A DNA stretch of 64,000 bases, from positions 180,229 to 244,228 of the forward strand of contig CAKOLL010000001.1 of NCBI GenBank assembly GCA_934096295.1, read 5' to 3'. This DNA comes from an uncultured Bacilli bacterium. GTDB lineage: Bacteria; Bacillota_I; Bacilli_A; RF39; UBA660. A program made the translations under genes and the position numbers. Under the pieces are notes generated by a model. The model saw only the letters and a program-made list of their open reading frames with translations. It was not told where the DNA came from and searched no databases. This document shows, piece after piece, positions 6,037-53,890 of the stretch (the first letter of the stretch is position 1; each line of letters begins with the position of its first letter).

Positions 6037-6113
6037 TGGTGTCCTCGATGAGAATTGAACTCATGACCCTATGCGTCGGAGGCATATGCTCTATCCAACT
6101 GAGCTACAAGGAC
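6037..6113 (-). tRNA. tRNA-Arg (anticodon CCG)
   Basis: Minus-strand sequence GTCCTTGTAGCTCAGTTGGATAGAGCATATGCCTCCGACGCATAGGGTCATGAGTTCAATTCTCATCGAGGACACCA folds as a cloverleaf. Acceptor is 7 bp, anticodon loop is CTCCGAC, T-loop is TTCAATT and CCA is encoded. Confidence 0.85.
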
Positions 6114-18335: not shown

Positions 18336-19517
18336 TTATTTATTTTGGGGTATTCTTTTTAAAGTTATATCTTTTTCGCTACTTAATTGTTCTTCTATTT
18401 TCTCACTGTAAATTTTTAATATTTCAATTTCATCAGAGAAAAATAAATTTAGACCATGGATAATATTGATAAGATCTGTTGCATTCTTTTTTCCTAAACC
18501 AGTGATTAATGGTAGATCTTTTCTTTTAAATTTTATAATATCACCGATAGTTGTTAAATAGTGATGATTTTCACTTAAGGGGTTTACTAATCTTTTTTTA
18601 AATCCTAAACTGTATAGTTTTATAGTTAATAAAGCATCAAGTGGTAATTGTAATTCTAATAGTTTTTGAGTTTTGATATCAATTGAATCAAAATTTGCTA
18701 AGTATGTATCCACCTTTTTGTATAGTGGAACAAAAATCCCTAAGCTTTCTAAATCATACAATAACTCTTTAGAAATTGTTTCATTTGTTGATGTAATAAA
18801 TTTTAAAACATCTCCGGTTGTTTCCAATCTTGTATGGTATTTATATAAATTTCTATAAGGTTCTAACTCGTTATTATGAATTAAAAAACTTGCTCTTAAA
18901 TTTTGTTTATTTGGATATGAAATTGTTAATTTTAAACGTTCTTCTTCAGTTAAATCATCAATAAATTTTAAATTCATATCTGCAATAGGTTTTGAAACTT
19001 CTTTTATTAAAGTTTCAGAAATTTCTAAAGATAATAAATCACTTTTGGCATATGACAATAATTCACTTAAATAACCTATTCCAACCTTTGCAAAAGTCAT
19101 TAAAGTTCTATTGGTTAGTCCTAGCTCACCTAAAGGCATATTTTCTAGACTTTGTTGTTTTTCAGATAGTTCTATAGTACTTGGATTTTTATATTCGCTA
19201 ATACTCTTTGTTTTTATATACATTGAAATAGTTTCTTTTCCTCGAGTTATTATTTGTCTTACTCTTTCTGGAGTTTTAGATATTTTTCTGCTAATTGATC
19301 TTAATGACTCACAATTACCTGTAAGTATTCCAAAATGCAATCTTAAAACATAGGTACCGGTTTCATTTAAAGGTGCTACACAATTCATATTTAAATCAAA
19401 TAGTTTTGTTGTAATATCTTTAATTATTTCTGCTCTTCTTTGAAAGCTTGCTAAATATTCATAATCTTTACCAAAAGTATCTATGGCAATATATTCATAT
19501 AGTTCATTAAAATTCAT
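18336..19517 (-). CDS. Hypothetical protein carrying a sigma-70 region-4-like HTH module
   Basis: 393 aa. Residues around 55-100 (LRLHFGILTGNCESLRSISRKISKTPERVRQIITRG) resemble sigma-70 region 4.1/4.2. HhH-like segments follow (LGELGLTNRTLMTFAKVGIGYLSELL; ITGLGKKNATDLINIIHGL). Confidence 0.5.
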   Translation of the reverse strand: MNFNELYEYIAIDTFGKDYEYLASFQRRAEIIKDITTKLFDLNMNCVAPLNETGTYVLRLHFGILTGNCESLRSISRKISKTPERVRQIITRGKETISMYIKTKSISEYKNPSTIELSEKQQSLENMPLGELGLTNRTLMTFAKVGIGYLSELLSYAKSDLLSLEISETLIKEVSKPIADMNLKFIDDLTEEERLKLTISYPNKQNLRASFLIHNNELEPYRNLYKYHTRLETTGDVLKFITSTNETISKELLYDLESLGIFVPLYKKVDTYLANFDSIDIKTQKLLELQLPLDALLTIKLYSLGFKKRLVNPLSENHHYLTTIGDIIKFKRKDLPLITGLGKKNATDLINIIHGLNLFFSDEIEILKIYSEKIEEQLSSEKDITLKRIPQNK

Positions 19518-22068: not shown

Positions 22069-22764
22069 ATGTTTTTAAATTTTTTAAATATTATCAAAGA
22101 AATGTTATTTTTCACGGGATCTTACTCAAATAATGTTTTTCCAGAGCCTTTATCAAGCGAGGAAGAAGAAAAATGTATCAAAGAAATGTTGGAAGGATTT
22201 ACGGATGCTAGGAACAAATTAATTGAACATAATTTAAGATTAGTTGCTCACATTGTAAAGAGGTTTGATGTTAAAGATGTCGATACGGATGATTTAATAA
22301 GTATTGGTACAATTGGGTTAATTAAAGGGATAGACACTTATAAAAATAATAAGAAAACGAAGATTACTACTTATGCTGCAAGATGTATTCAAAATGAAAT
22401 TTTAATGCATTTTAGGAGTCAAAAAAAGATTGGTCCTACAGTTTCTTTAAATGATGCTATTGGTCATGATAAAGAAGGAAATGAAATTAATTTAATAGAT
22501 GTTATTAAAGATAAAGATGTTGATTTATTTGAAGAATTAGACTTAAAGAATAACATAACGTTGTTAGAAAAATATTTAAAACTACTTAATAAAAGAGAAA
22601 AAGAAATTATTATTAAAAGATATGGTCTTAATAATACTAAAGATATGACTCAAAAAGAAATTGCGGATGATCTTAAGATTTCAAGAAGTTATGTTTCAAG
22701 AATAGAAAAAAGAGCACTTACTAAAATGCTCACTGAATTTATTAAAAATAAAAATATAGATTAA
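22069..22764 (+). CDS. sigK: Sporulation sigma factor pro-sigma-K (sigma-27), uninterrupted
   Basis: 231 aa. Pro-sequence ...YSNNVFPEPLSSEEEE. KLIEHNLRLVAHIVKRF, ISIGTIGLIKGIDTY, TTYAARCIQNEILMHFR and ISRSYVSRIEKRAL match Bacillus SigK nearly residue for residue. Confidence 0.85.
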   Translation: MFLNFLNIIKEMLFFTGSYSNNVFPEPLSSEEEEKCIKEMLEGFTDARNKLIEHNLRLVAHIVKRFDVKDVDTDDLISIGTIGLIKGIDTYKNNKKTKITTYAARCIQNEILMHFRSQKKIGPTVSLNDAIGHDKEGNEINLIDVIKDKDVDLFEELDLKNNITLLEKYLKLLNKREKEIIIKRYGLNNTKDMTQKEIADDLKISRSYVSRIEKRALTKMLTEFIKNKNID

Positions 22765-49056: not shown

Positions 49057-49545
49057 TTATTTAATTAATCCACCATTACATTTTAATTCATATATTTTTT
49101 TATTATTTTTGTATATAGTTTCAATTCCACTAAAACAGTTAATATCCCCGATTACTTCAAATGAATATTTATATTCACCATTTATCAATTCTTTTGGGCC
49201 TCTTACGGGAATTATATCTTTATCTTTTCCGACATTCATTAATGCCGGACGTAATGCTTTATCCATTGCTTCTTCTCCTAGAGTTTCATCTAGAGTTACA
49301 CCATAATAATTCATAGCCCAATAAGTTTTTCCATCTACATAAACTACCTCTTCTCCGATAAAATTAGTACCCCCAAAATATGTATCATGATATAGCATTT
49401 TATCTTTTTTATATTCATAATCCTTAGAATTTTGCCTTGTATTTGATACTTTTTCTACATTTTCATTTGCATATGTTTGTTTTTTTGCTTCAATTAAGAA
49501 TTCTTCTAAATTAATCATTTTTTTACCTTCTTTCTTTTTTACCAT
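49057..49545 (-). CDS. Hypothetical protein
   Basis: 162 aa soluble protein. Family not recognised. Confidence 0.45.
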   Translation of the reverse strand: MVKKKEGKKMINLEEFLIEAKKQTYANENVEKVSNTRQNSKDYEYKKDKMLYHDTYFGGTNFIGEEVVYVDGKTYWAMNYYGVTLDETLGEEAMDKALRPALMNVGKDKDIIPVRGPKELINGEYKYSFEVIGDINCFSGIETIYKNNKKIYELKCNGGLIK

Positions 49546-49846: not shown

Positions 49847-52800
49847 TTATTGAGAATTTTTTACTCTATGCAATGTGGAATCATAATGTATAGATTCTTT
49901 TGAATTAGTAAATGTTTTATTATAAGCGTTAATAACAGTTTTTATAAAAGTCATACCAGTATCAACTTTTAAAGATACTTCTTCTTCACTTATTCTTAAG
50001 AATTTTGCTATTTGTTTAATAGAATATTTTTCATTAAATATTCCTAGAAATAAATATAATATCAGTTTATAATCTTCTGGCATAAAATCTATTATGACTT
50101 TATAATATTTTTTTAAGTTTTCTGCATCGTTATTAAGGTTCGTTGTTTCTTCTTTTGAGGTTCTGCTTTTTATTTTTTCTTTTAAATTATTTATTTTAAT
50201 TCGAAGAATATTTTTTTCATTTTTGGTAAGATAAGAAGTATCATAAGTTTTAGTAAAATCACTACCAAAAACTTTAACAAATAATGAATATATTTTAGTA
50301 TTTTTACGTTCACTATTAAATATATTTAAAACTTCTTCATAAGTTATACCCAAAATAATATTAAGTGTCTTGCCATCATTTCTGCTTTTTCTGTTTCTTG
50401 TTATATTTTGTCTACTTTTATTGTTTATTCTATTTTTTATTTTTTCTAAGGTTTTAGCTAATACCGCTAAAGAAACATTATTTATAAACTTTAAATCGAG
50501 ATTTTCTCCGAAAGCCTTAGTAAGCACTTCCAAATTTGTAGGGGTTGCTACCAATTTTATATCGCTTAGGCTTTCATTAATTAATTCTTCTAGAGTTTTA
50601 CCTTTATAAATATTATCCTCTTGAGCTATTTTACTTAATATATCAAGCCTTCTTAATAAAAGGGCATAATCGTTTTCAGAGAATTTACTTTTATCAAGGA
50701 ACTCATTTAAATCATTACCAAAAGCTTTATAAAGATCTTCATTTTTATCTAAGGCATTCATAAATCTTTCTGTGTCTTCATATGATAGTCCCAATATTTC
50801 ATTTAATTTTTTAGAATTGAATATATCAGTTTCTTGTTGTTTTTTATCCATAAGTTTACTTATTTTGCTTACTACTTTGCTTTTTTTATCTATTCTTTTT
50901 TTTATTTTTTCTAAGGTTTTAGCTAATATTGCTAAAGAAACATTATTTATAAACTTTAAATCGAGGTTTTCTCCGAAAGCCTTGGTAAGTACTTCCAAAT
51001 TTGTAGGGGTTGCTACCATTTTTATATCGCTTAGGCTTTCATTAATTATCTCTTCTAGAGTTTTACCTTTATAAATATTATCTTCTTTGGCTATTTTACT
51101 TAACATACCAAGTCTTCTTAATAAAACGGCATAATCTTTTTCAGAGAATTTACTTTTATCAAGGAACTCATTTAATTCATTGCCAAAAGCTTTATAAAGC
51201 TCTTCATTTTTATCTAAAGCATTTACAAATCTTATTGTGTCTTCATAGGATAATCTCAACATTTCATTTAATTTTTTAGGACTGAATGTATCTGCTCCTT
51301 GTTCTTTTTTACTCATAAGTTTACTTATCTTGCTTACTACTTTGCTTTTTTCATAATAACTTAAATTATCTAAATTACAAATTCCTTTTCCATCTGGGCC
51401 AAAAGCTTTTATAAATATATTTGATATTGTGTTGTCTTTTCTTGTTAATTCTTTCCATAGTAAATCTATATTATCTAAAGCAAATATTTCATTTAAAGTT
51501 TTGCCACTATACTCTTTACCATAACTTTTGTAATCATTATTAATTATGTTTTTTACTGCTTGTTTTAGATATGTTGCCTCTTTAGAATTCAAATTATCTT
51601 TATAAACTTCATCTAAATTTGGACCAAATGCTTTGTAAAATAAAGTTCTAATATAAGTTGAAACTTTTGCACAATAATCAAAATCATTAACCTTTTCTTT
51701 TCCAATTAAATCTATTAAGGTTTTACCATTTAAAATGATTCTTTCATTTTTTTCACTTTGAATGCTTTTTGTGTTATTTTTCAAGAAATTTTGCATTTTT
51801 CCTAAAGCTTTTTCTTCAATTTGTCTTACTCGTTCTCTAGTCATTTTGTACATTTTGCCAATTTCTTCAAGAGTATAATCTTCTCCATATCTTTTGGTAA
51901 TTATGTCTTTTTCTCGTTCAGTTAAACATTCTAAAAATGTTAATACCGCTGTTTTATTTACAATGGCTTCTTCTAAATTAATTTTATCTGGTACAAAATT
52001 ATAACGATTTGTTTCTGTATCATCTTTTACCTCGGCATCTAAAGATGTTAAAAAGCCAATATTATTTACTAGTTCTTCAATATTAGCACAATCTTCATTC
52101 ATTTCATCTGCTATTTCTTTAATTGATACTTCTCTTCCTAAAGTATTAGTTAATTTTTCCTCAACTTTCATAACTTTTCGGTATTTTTCTTGAACACGGA
52201 CGGGAATTCTTATATTTCTTTCTTTGTTATGAATGCTACGCGTAATCAAAGATTTAATCCAGTAATATGCATAACTTGAAAATGAGGAACCATAACTAAA
52301 ATCATAATAATCAATTGCTTTAGACATACCAAAGAATCCTTCATTAACTAAATCAAGTAATGTCATATCCGTAGATGCTATTTTTTTTGCAATATATACA
52401 ATTAAACGAATATTTCCCTCGATAATTAAATTACGGTATTTATCGCAAATATCTACTTTACCAAGTGATTTAGCTTCTTGATAAATTTTAATATATTTTA
52501 AAGTATCTTCTTTTGATAATATGGGTAAATCCGACATGTCTTTAAAAAACAAATCAACTGAATCTAAAGAATTTATATTTATTTCTTTATAATCAATTAT
52601 TTCTTCTTTAATTAAATTTTTTATTATTCCGTAACTCGTAAGGATATTTCCATTTAGTTCTCCGTACCTTCTAATAAGTTCTTCCTCTGTATATTTTTTA
52701 TTAGAAAAAAAGCTAGATAAATAACTATCTATAGTAGGATTTTCACATAATAATGCCATGAATTTAATACCATTTTCTATATTTTTATCTATTAAAATAT

Positions 52801-52906
52801 TGCTAAAATCTTGTAGGGATATAGTTTTATTATTTATTTTTTCCACTAAAACTTTTATAATTTCTTGCATAACAAACCTCCTGATGAATTTATTATAACA
52901 CGGCAA
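49847..52906 (-). CDS. Giant sigma-70 family protein, paralogue of the 801-aa one. A sigma-A-like core is followed by about 640 aa of C-terminal repeat modules and a terminal HTH.
   Basis: 1019 aa. N-terminal segment is paralogous to the 801-aa protein (IDSYLSSFFSNKKYTEEELIRRYGELNG... against IDNYFAQLLRGKNKYTEDEIYKRFGDING...). Region 2 is EGNIRLIVYIAKK...DLVNEGFFGMSKAIDYY...FSSYAYYWIKSLITRSI...RNIRIPV. Region 4 is TLEEIGKMYKMTRERVRQIEEKALGKM. Many [KY]AFG-x-[ND]L modules follow. Terminal KYSIKQIAKFLRISEEEVSLKVDTGMTF is HTH-like. Confidence 0.75.
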   Translation of the reverse strand: MPCYNKFIRRFVMQEIIKVLVEKINNKTISLQDFSNILIDKNIENGIKFMALLCENPTIDSYLSSFFSNKKYTEEELIRRYGELNGNILTSYGIIKNLIKEEIIDYKEININSLDSVDLFFKDMSDLPILSKEDTLKYIKIYQEAKSLGKVDICDKYRNLIIEGNIRLIVYIAKKIASTDMTLLDLVNEGFFGMSKAIDYYDFSYGSSFSSYAYYWIKSLITRSIHNKERNIRIPVRVQEKYRKVMKVEEKLTNTLGREVSIKEIADEMNEDCANIEELVNNIGFLTSLDAEVKDDTETNRYNFVPDKINLEEAIVNKTAVLTFLECLTEREKDIITKRYGEDYTLEEIGKMYKMTRERVRQIEEKALGKMQNFLKNNTKSIQSEKNERIILNGKTLIDLIGKEKVNDFDYCAKVSTYIRTLFYKAFGPNLDEVYKDNLNSKEATYLKQAVKNIINNDYKSYGKEYSGKTLNEIFALDNIDLLWKELTRKDNTISNIFIKAFGPDGKGICNLDNLSYYEKSKVVSKISKLMSKKEQGADTFSPKKLNEMLRLSYEDTIRFVNALDKNEELYKAFGNELNEFLDKSKFSEKDYAVLLRRLGMLSKIAKEDNIYKGKTLEEIINESLSDIKMVATPTNLEVLTKAFGENLDLKFINNVSLAILAKTLEKIKKRIDKKSKVVSKISKLMDKKQQETDIFNSKKLNEILGLSYEDTERFMNALDKNEDLYKAFGNDLNEFLDKSKFSENDYALLLRRLDILSKIAQEDNIYKGKTLEELINESLSDIKLVATPTNLEVLTKAFGENLDLKFINNVSLAVLAKTLEKIKNRINNKSRQNITRNRKSRNDGKTLNIILGITYEEVLNIFNSERKNTKIYSLFVKVFGSDFTKTYDTSYLTKNEKNILRIKINNLKEKIKSRTSKEETTNLNNDAENLKKYYKVIIDFMPEDYKLILYLFLGIFNEKYSIKQIAKFLRISEEEVSLKVDTGMTFIKTVINAYNKTFTNSKESIHYDSTLHRVKNSQ
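50390..51350. repeat. Near-perfect tandem duplication (2 copies of about 465 bp) inside the 1019-aa sigma gene
   Basis: Two protein repeats of about 155 aa (SKVVSKISKLM[SD]KK...YKAFGN[ED]LNEFLDKSKFSE...TKAFGENLDLKFINNVSLA[IV]LAKTLEKIK) with about 90% identity. Matching DNA strings, e.g. TTTTTCTAAGGTTTTAGCTAATA at about 50441 and about 50906. Antisense ORFs 50370-50609 and 50772-51074 are near-identical. Confidence 0.75.
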
Positions 52907-52954: not shown

Positions 52955-53890
52955 TCAAGAACCTTGGTTTAATCCGTAATTTTTTAAATTATCTATCTTT
53001 TTTATTATCTCAACATTTTGTAAAAAGTATTTTTTTACATATTTATTTTCTGGCCATAATGGAAAATTATCATTAATGTATTTTGTACATTTTTTTATAT
53101 CTTCACTATTAAAATTGGATGTTCTCATTAATCTGTTTGTAGTTCCAAATAGTACATGACTTATCGCTGCAAATTCAATTTTTTCTTTAAATTCATCAAA
53201 AATTTCTCTTTTTTTAGCAAAATCAATTATAGAATCCATCGCTATTAATGTATCAAGTTGATTTTGAGTATTAGATTGTAGGGATGAATCACTATGAACT
53301 ACATAAGTATATAAAGCTTCATCAACATATGAAACTGAATTATTTATCAATATGACTTTAAAAATAAATTCTAAGTCTTCTGCAATTTTTAAGTTTGAAA
53401 AAGAAATATTGTTATCTACAATTACTGATTTATTAAATAGTCTAATATCGACGGATGGACTTTGTAACAAATCTAATTCTTCTTTTGTTCTTTGTGTATT
53501 ATTTCTAATCCCATTTACTTCTTTAAATCCTTTTAACATGCATGAAAAACTATTATCTTCATTAATATTACTATGTAAGACTTCAAGACAATTTTTTTCT
53601 ATGTAATCATCACTATCTAGAAAGTATAGGTATTTACCTTGGGATTTAGATATACCTAAATTTCTAGTATAACCGACTCCTTCATTTTTAGTATTTTTGT
53701 AATATTTAATTCTTTTATCTAACTCTTTATATTTTAAAATAATACTTTCAACATTATCTATAGAATAATCATTTATAATTATTATTTCTATGTTATTATA
53801 AGTTTGCTCTATAACCGACTTTATGCATCTTTCAAAATAATTTTCATTATTATATACAGGTATTATTACACTAATTAAATCTTTTTCCAT
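52955..53890 (-). CDS. Family 2 glycosyltransferase
   Basis: 311 aa. ISVIIPVYNNENYFERCIKSVIEQTY...IIINDYSID is the GT-A N-terminal signature. DSDD motif. Confidence 0.8.
   Translation of the reverse strand: MEKDLISVIIPVYNNENYFERCIKSVIEQTYNNIEIIIINDYSIDNVESIILKYKELDKRIKYYKNTKNEGVGYTRNLGISKSQGKYLYFLDSDDYIEKNCLEVLHSNINEDNSFSCMLKGFKEVNGIRNNTQRTKEELDLLQSPSVDIRLFNKSVIVDNNISFSNLKIAEDLEFIFKVILINNSVSYVDEALYTYVVHSDSSLQSNTQNQLDTLIAMDSIIDFAKKREIFDEFKEKIEFAAISHVLFGTTNRLMRTSNFNSEDIKKCTKYINDNFPLWPENKYVKKYFLQNVEIIKKIDNLKNYGLNQGS

Follow-up and report, generated by a model that had tools for sequence, protein, structure and literature searches.

In a 64,000-nucleotide (nt) stretch of DNA from an uncultured Bacilli bacterium (GTDB lineage Bacteria; Bacillota_I; Bacilli_A; RF39; UBA660), referred to here as the window (GenBank assembly GCA_934096295.1, contig CAKOLL010000001.1, positions 180,229 to 244,228), a minus-strand gene encodes a sigma-70-family protein of 1007 amino acids (aa) whose C-terminal part carries an array of helical modules, and within this array a 465-bp unit of two modules occurs twice in tandem. 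The two-copy state is genuine and no artefact of assembly, the number of units differs between closely related strains, and the duplication predates by far the strains in which two copies are found. Together, these data are probably best explained by an old duplication in situ that was followed by recurrent loss of one unit. The duplication is an ordinary case of tandem duplication and deletion in a repeat array, and its host is an unusual, uncharacterised and rare sigma-70 architecture.

The geometry of the repeat was established with Tandem Repeats Finder, which reported a 465-bp repeat at 50415-51351 with 2.0 copies, 91% matches, 0% indels and a score of 1580, and the same 465-nt register was recovered by an independent repeat search of the window. 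By direct count, 423 of the 465 nt are identical between the copies and 42 are mismatched, with no indels. In-register identity is at background (0.2-0.5) to the left of ~50415 and to the right of ~50889/51354, the match running ~10 nt past two full units (51345-51354) to give a full span of 50415-51354; since background identity amounts to only 20-50%, a repeat at 91% is far beyond chance. The copies are arranged head to tail in the same register and orientation with a readable junction, which defines a tandem duplication, and the unit corresponds to 155 in-frame codons inside the sole long open reading frame (ORF) present here on the minus strand. A first-pass annotation, made by a model from the letters of the window, had proposed a tandem duplication of about 465 bp inside the sigma gene and a unit made of two modules, and both proposals were borne out, the latter by an iterated hidden Markov model (HMM) of the modules. 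Its figure of about 90% identity for two ~155-aa repeats was right as to the 155-codon unit and fits the DNA (91%), whereas the protein copies are identical at 132 of 156 positions (85%); the statement that the DNA strings match over hundreds of bp did not hold, the longest exact runs common to both copies being 38, 35, 32 and 31 bp. The differences between the copies are distributed 14/6/23 over codon positions 1/2/3 of the minus-strand frame. In terms of modules, the duplicated unit comprises M3 and M4, repeated as M5 and M6, with 82% identity between M3 and M5 and 87% between M4 and M6, compared with 24-40% for every other module pair. The breakpoints sit in long helices that occupy equivalent positions at the ends of modules 2 and 4, and the sequence across the junction of copy 1 and copy 2 is AGAATAGATAAAAAAAGCAAAGTAG. 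The final ~10 nt of copy 1 are closer to the sequence just upstream of the unit (ATGAAAAAAG) than to the end of the unit (ACAATAAAAG), which places the original join in A-rich microhomology. Two plus-strand ORFs over the repeat, described in the same annotation as almost identical, do exist and share a nearly identical tail of ~60 aa; they are only an antisense image of the repeat and were rejected as genes, having no Pfam match and lying opposite a conserved gene under purifying selection.

Copy number was compared among homologous loci (L) and their protein products (P), for which all evidence on copy number and alleles is assembly-level and derives from short-read metagenome assemblies. The products P0002-P0004 are 852 aa long, exactly 155 shorter than 1007, and in the 2094 nt outside the repeat the corresponding loci are virtually those of the window, with 2093/2094 identical positions in L002, 2089/2094 in L003 and 2084/2094 in L004. 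The expectation that copy number could vary between strains and change the length of the array is therefore supported by these one-unit alleles, which are 99.5-100% identical to the two-unit form outside the repeat. Two-unit alleles were found on ~35 contigs and close one-unit alleles on 5, and the more distant orthologues L007, L008 and L009 (flank identity 95-83%) have one unit each. The locus resembles a variable-number tandem repeat in that copy number differs among close strains (1007 versus 852 aa), but not in the near-identity of copies or the multiplicity of allelic counts, given that the copies are 9% diverged, share exact runs of at most 38 bp and occur in two states only. The single unit of L002 matches copy 1 at 98.9% identity, whereas copy 2 is 90.5-93.1% identical to every sampled single-copy unit. 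The single unit of L003 and L004 is a chimera of both copies, which disagrees with copy 1 at 16-18 sites and with copy 2 at 32, whereas a single-crossover product joining positions 1 to 296-325 of copy 1 to the rest of copy 2 leaves no more than 5-8 mismatches; for L003 by itself the counts are 16, 32 and 5-6. The chimeric unit also has derived states private to copy 2 at unit positions 232, 326 and 415; the repeat is thus a substrate for recombination, as had been anticipated. For the L002 unit, a crossover at 416-447 reduces 5 mismatches to 1, but this fit does not settle the matter, since the sites at which L002 resembles copy 2 are confined to 448-460, where the junction phase falls. In L025, a two-copy allele, copy 1 has the bases of copy 2 at 218, 232 and 241, a patch that L003 has as well, and copy 2 shows copy-1 states at 237 and 295. 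On the simplest reading of these alleles, the copies may occasionally exchange sequence by gene conversion, in addition to deletion via unequal crossover from two-unit parents. The idea of ongoing concerted evolution finds weak support in such short conversion-like patches, and the copies are still 9% apart. L025, the scaffold of P0133, is itself a mosaic in which nt 1-1000 of the gene are L008-like and ~9% diverged and nt 1000-2400 are window-like with both copies; its contig ends with ~55 nt of unrelated sequence inside copy 2, reflecting either real recombination between lineages or a chimeric scaffold.

The age of the duplication was assessed from in-frame Nei-Gojobori estimates of synonymous (dS) and nonsynonymous (dN) divergence. 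Between copy 1 and copy 2, dS is 0.201 and dN is 0.074 (omega 0.37), whereas in the flanks of the repeat dS between the window and the one-unit locus L002 is 0.003; against L007 and L008 the flanks give dS of 0.175 and 0.255, respectively, with an omega of ~0.3 (0.27-0.32 for both). The divergence of the copies is therefore ~70 times that of the flanks against the one-unit sister allele and on a par with that of species-level lineages (0.175-0.255), and the duplication is not recent. Polarisation of the 42 differing sites by three outgroups showed that the outgroup state is kept by copy 2 at 16 sites and by copy 1 at 22, so both copies have evolved since their split. The omega of the copies, similar to that of the rest of the gene, argues that purifying selection acts on both as it does elsewhere in the gene and that both have probably been retained as functional segments of the protein.

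The reading that we favour, an old in-situ duplication with recurrent loss, would begin with the in-frame duplication of the two-module unit, extending the array from 5 to 7 modules, by a join that may have occurred at the A-rich microhomology in the equivalent long helices ending modules 2 and 4. The two-unit allele would then have become common in the lineage, and the rare 852-aa alleles would be deletions produced by unequal homologous crossover at identical runs of 29-38 bp, while conversion patches would pass sequence between the copies to an extent too small to homogenise them. The direction of change, loss rather than gain, is likewise a point at which this account goes beyond the alleles themselves, as is any functional effect that array length may have. 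Several observations weigh against it. The pattern in L002 fits a pre-duplication ancestor equally well, and the direction of change is not proven by it. L007, L008 and L009, the more distant lineages, have one copy each, so that an in-situ origin as old as dS 0.2 needs several independent losses. A neighbour-joining tree of the units was unresolved, with bootstrap values that were low or unreliable, and the case for two functional copies comes from omega only. The mosaic allele L025 is a 2.7-kb metagenomic scaffold that could itself be chimeric. Logan assemblies use a small k-mer, and three of the five one-unit contigs are of this type, in which collapse is possible in principle, although the ENA assembly L003 agrees with them and private single-nucleotide polymorphisms (SNPs) are present.

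A different history, which we consider possible but unlikely, is a recent gain by import, whereby an L002-like resident with one unit took a second unit from a relative diverged by ~9%, making the event young and the second copy old. The recombination would have been out of register: on one side the sequences would have joined illegitimately, at the A-rich microhomology, and on the other a homologous crossover would have taken place close to the end of the unit. The contrast between copy 1, at 98.9% identity to the L002 unit with flanks identical at 2093 of 2094 positions, and copy 2, at 90.5-93.1% from every sampled unit, is what an import would leave behind; after correction of the junction phase the diverged tract would also be contiguous in a single-copy donor, L025 provides an example of L008-like and window-like sequence joinable at the sigma locus, and the more distant lineages are all single-copy. 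No lineage of copy-2 type that could have served as donor was found, however, the full-length protein search having returned only P0001-P0007 above 45% identity. Two of the donor searches were uninformative: a protein search with copy 2 alone gave no match and missed even P0001, a limit of the word index with a short query, and the 7 matches of a copy-2-specific 19-mer scan of metagenome contigs were all due to chance. The imported tract must, moreover, stop within ~50 bp of the unit end, the 568 nt beyond being free of differences; the copy-2-private derived states of L003 and L004 (232, 326 and 415) point most simply to a two-copy allele as their ancestor; and two-unit alleles are in the majority.

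The presence of both copies across assemblies bears on a further alternative, namely that the two-copy state is a false expansion stitching together the alleles of two strains, or that the one-copy contigs are collapsed repeats with no real polymorphism behind them. The exact 1007-aa product occurs on 29 contigs (NCBI and ENA) in its cluster and was read on 23 index contigs from Hadza, MERR22 and other gut metagenomes; six loci fetched from separate assemblies (Hadza, MERR22 and a k141 assembly) do not differ from the window gene at any of 3024 nt. Identical two-copy DNA was found in at least eight assemblies with SPAdes-type and MEGAHIT-type contig names, and two-copy alleles with the same junction occur in L001, with five SNPs, and in L025, with few private SNPs. 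Human-gut metagenomes are the source of every contig with the sigma gene. The exact product on many contigs, the loci without a difference, the exact runs of at most 38 bp and the restriction of the junction sequence to two-unit alleles, none of the one-unit alleles containing it, establish that the two-copy state is no artefact, and the collapse or expansion suspected by the first-pass annotation does not account for it, since independent assemblies, made with different assemblers, agree in the 42 differences and in the novel junction. An artefact of either kind is very unlikely: short-read data, the Logan origin of three one-unit contigs and the break of L025 inside copy 2, with unrelated sequence at its contig end, speak for it, but false expansion would have to yield identical DNA and junction in at least eight assemblies from a longest common exact run of 38 bp, and collapse does not explain one-unit alleles that have private SNPs, recur in three samples and an independently assembled ENA scaffold, remain in frame and equal all more distant orthologues in length. 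Scarcely tenable is the very recent in-situ duplication proposed in the first place, with subsequent divergence or concerted evolution, for although 91% DNA identity over 465 bp without indels and a few conversion-like patches would suit it, the copies differ by 42 substitutions (dS 0.20, against 0.003 for the flanks) compared with 0-1 in 2094 flanking nt against the one-unit sister allele, omega 0.37 argues against an adaptive burst, and both copies have derived states relative to outgroups.

The protein that hosts the duplication had been listed as 1019 aa. Its true start is the ATG at 52868-52870, with GGAGG 6 nt upstream, and all homologues begin with MQEII; a TTG at 52906 adds a 12-codon extension (52871-52906) that overlaps the ribosome-binding site and a TGnTATAAT motif, so the TTG-initiated ORF call covers the leader and putative promoter region and overstates the protein by 12 residues. 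The motif is a putative promoter element, and a promoter and terminator scan found promoter-like sites without excess over shuffled sequence and no terminator. Membership of the sigma-70 family follows from regions 2, 3 and 4, each above its Pfam cut-off (Table 1), and the NCBIfam model of the sigma70-ECF superfamily scored 103.7 bits (cut-off 42.9). The top NCBIfam models were of RpoD/SigA/RpoS type, all below their equivalog cut-offs (160-175 bits versus 354-572; RpoD_Cterm 169.7 bits versus 354 and PRK09210 159 bits versus 572), so that the protein is not classed as an RpoD/SigA equivalog. Regions 2-4 are most similar to those of RpoD proteins, at 38-41% identity, whereas the protein differs from RpoD/SigA (groups 1-2) in having no match to Pfam Sigma70_r1_2 or r1_1, in these sub-cut-off scores, in its C-terminal array, in its gene not adjoining dnaG and in the presence of a second paralogue and a small sigma factor in the window.

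Downstream of region 4, ~640 residues have no Pfam match. The recurring motif K-A-F-G served as the anchor for dividing this part into modules, and an HMM iterated with 24 homologues yielded seven modules of ~70-80 aa (M1-M7) with per-module E-values of 1e-16 to 3e-26 and the consensus Y-x-x-K-T-L-x-E-I-L ... K-A-F-G ... L-x-x-x-E, followed by a long helix. An AlphaFold model of a single module has three short helices and one long helix, with a predicted local distance difference test (pLDDT) of 87 and a predicted template modelling score (pTM) of 0.70; the full-length model is weak globally (pLDDT 65, pTM 0.26), which is consistent with a protein built as beads on a string. Foldseek found no match for the module in the PDB, a PDB profile search detected only weak likeness to the CAP repeat chain 8vd6 (17 residues) and to pentatricopeptide-repeat (PPR) proteins, and Pfam scans of 37 modules gave scattered sub-threshold matches only. 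The terminal ~80 aa appear to resemble a second sigma region 4: by hhalign, the family alignment matched the region-4 alignment built in this analysis with 94% probability and an E-value of 1.4e-7, and the top Pfam match was Sigma70_r4 at E 0.004 and 17 bits, below the cut-off of 24.1.

Table 1. Features of the long sigma gene, its internal repeat and its paralogue (positions of the window).
Feature	Position	Strand	Basis or remark
Gene, 1007-aa sigma-70-family protein	49847..52870 (stop codon included)	-	ORF list, Pfam, homologue starts
Extended -10-like TGnTATAAT	52892-52900	-	read from sequence; putative promoter
Shine-Dalgarno GGAGG	52877-52881	-	read from sequence
Sigma core (residues 150-360 of 1007-aa product)	51791..52423	-	Pfam
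Sigma region 2	52220-52423	-	Pfam Sigma70_r2, E 3e-11, 43.2 bits (cut-off 24)
Sigma region 3	51977-52189	-	Pfam Sigma70_r3, E 4.5e-9, 36.7 bits (cut-off 25.3)
Sigma region 4	51791-51934	-	Pfam Sigma70_r4, E 2.6e-23, 81.7 bits (cut-off 24.1)
Array of helical modules M1-M7 (residues 380-926)	50093..51733	-	iterated HMM
Repeat copy 1, N-terminal-side in protein (residues 509-663)	50880..51344	-	tail of last helix of M2, M3 and most of M4
Repeat copy 2 (residues 664-818)	50415..50879	-	M2-tail-like linker, M5 and most of M6; deeper-branching copy
Duplication junction	50880..50896	-	AGAATAGATAAAAAAAG/CAAAG, in A-rich microhomology
C-terminal ~80-aa domain, second sigma-region-4-like (helix-turn-helix)	49850..50092	-	hhalign and Pfam
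Antisense ORF, 79 aa	50370..50609	+	shadow of repeat copy 2; no Pfam match
Antisense ORF, 100 aa	50772..51074	+	shadow of repeat copy 1; no Pfam match
Paralogous long sigma, 801 aa	19584-21989	-	N-terminal domain, regions 2-4, four modules, terminal region-4-like domain

Among the homologues P0001-P0024 the number of modules is 3, 4, 5, 6 or 7. A second tandem duplication, of a single module, was found in P0008 (L033), where a 237-bp unit is repeated at gene nt 2098-2571 with 232 of 237 nt identical (97.9%); the gene of P0009 (L035), 92.4% identical to that of P0008 elsewhere, is without it, and the lineage is 45% identical to the window protein. The 237-bp duplication is independent of the 465-bp one and the younger of the two. 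The range of 3-7 modules and the separate units of 237 and 465 bp indicate that array length changes recurrently and through different units. When 1.84 billion representative proteins were searched with the module profile, only 108 clusters (50% identity) were recovered at E<=1e-3; a sigma core lies upstream of the array in at least 46 of them and was not found in the other 62. The latter were considered as stand-alone arrays and rejected as such, many of them starting with a module at residues 1-10 and resembling truncated gene calls. A scan of genome contigs with back-translated patterns, which were poor, recovered only six distant sigma genes of 26-36% identity, in Bacilli and Clostridia metagenome-assembled genomes, and the literature searched contains no description of a sigma core combined with a module array and a second region-4-like domain.

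Intragenic tandem repeats of bacterial genes are known to vary in copy number. Repeat arrays of the Rib/alpha-C type in streptococcal surface proteins vary in a similar manner. The repeat tract of E. coli tolA is a studied case of intragenic copy-number variation (PMC3477136), and the sigma repeat is like it in that the repeats are coding and in frame, their number varies among strains within a species, a structural region becomes longer or shorter as a result and recombination or slippage between copies is taken to be the cause. It differs from tolA in its long unit (465 bp, two folded modules), in the 9% divergence of its copies, whose exact runs do not exceed 38 bp, in showing only one versus two copies, in its host, a cytoplasmic sigma factor rather than an envelope or surface protein, and in giving no sign of hypermutable, contingency-type behaviour. 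C-terminal extensions are also known in the sigma-70 family, SigI-type factors being one example. Another is provided by SigG1 of ECF56, a group of extracytoplasmic function (ECF) sigma factors with a C-terminal domain of SnoaL_2 type (PMC7730460). Both this group and the 1007-aa protein join a sigma core to additional C-terminal protein outside the canonical regions, and in known cases the extension modulates sigma activity; by contrast, the core of the 1007-aa protein has regions 2, 3 and 4 and is RpoD/SigA-like rather than ECF, and its ~640-aa extension, made of an array that has 3-7 helical modules across the family and of a second region-4-like domain, matches no known extension domain.

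In itself the duplication is a textbook route of repeat-protein growth and of limited importance, and interest is moderate to low for the repeat, higher for the sigma protein family to which it points, which is rare and unannotated. The alleles nonetheless constitute a natural experiment, in which gut strains that are otherwise nearly isogenic have either 5 or 7 modules in the same sigma factor, both forms being under purifying selection, so that the one-unit and two-unit alleles offer a ready contrast for array function. They also illustrate that the identity of two copies tells little of the age of a duplication unless it is set against the divergence of the flanks. It is conceivable, if distinctly improbable, that the array acts as a length-tunable and possibly DNA-contacting tether between region 4 and the second region-4-like head, the number of modules retuning promoter choice through spacing or upstream elements; if so, strains would vary in regulation through the repeat number of a sigma factor. 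Should one of the long paralogues be the main sigma factor of the organism, it would represent a new architecture for housekeeping transcription initiation.

The second long sigma factor of the window, of 801 aa, is 30% identical to the 1007-aa protein and is closest in the homologue set to P0023 (42%). It is flanked by a gene for a 393-aa protein with a domain like the C-terminal domain of the RNA-polymerase alpha subunit (18336-19517, minus strand; PF03118, E 2.5e-8) and is divergent from a gene for a small sigma factor of 231 aa with regions 2 and 4 only (22069-22764, plus strand). The trio of formate/nitrite transporter, small sigma and long sigma occurs also beside P0009 in L035, and the pairing of a small with a long sigma factor is therefore conserved across genera. 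Around the 1007-aa gene, the order metallophosphatase, 141-aa ORF, GT2, sigma, DUF5680 and, further on, Maf is kept, completely or partially, in lineages with as little as 73% protein identity. The DUF5680 gene (49057-49545, minus strand) directly follows the sigma gene in all close loci that were retrieved, at identities as low as 73%, and may possibly be linked to it in function; P0008 and P0009 have no adjoining DUF5680 gene, an 83-aa ORF on the opposite strand following instead. The GT2 gene upstream (52955-53890, 311 aa) is called as two ORFs of 64 and 194 aa in L003-L006, which suggests that it is disrupted in strains with the one-unit allele of P0002/P0003.

The array had no match by tblastn in 50,697 phage records, and with no phage homologue, a conserved synteny and housekeeping genes in the window (ileS, polA, clpB, priA and topA), the long sigma gene is not a phage or mobile-element gene but a chromosomal core gene. 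For the IleS protein, the closest relatives with a name belong to metagenome-assembled genomes labelled Bacilli bacterium, at 73-76% identity. The window has ~26% GC (23-30% throughout), almost every ORF of at least 120 aa lies on its minus strand and GC skew is steadily negative, which is consistent with a position in one replichore of a low-GC chromosome of Firmicutes type. The sole Rfam match in the window is one tRNA at 6040-6113 on the minus strand.

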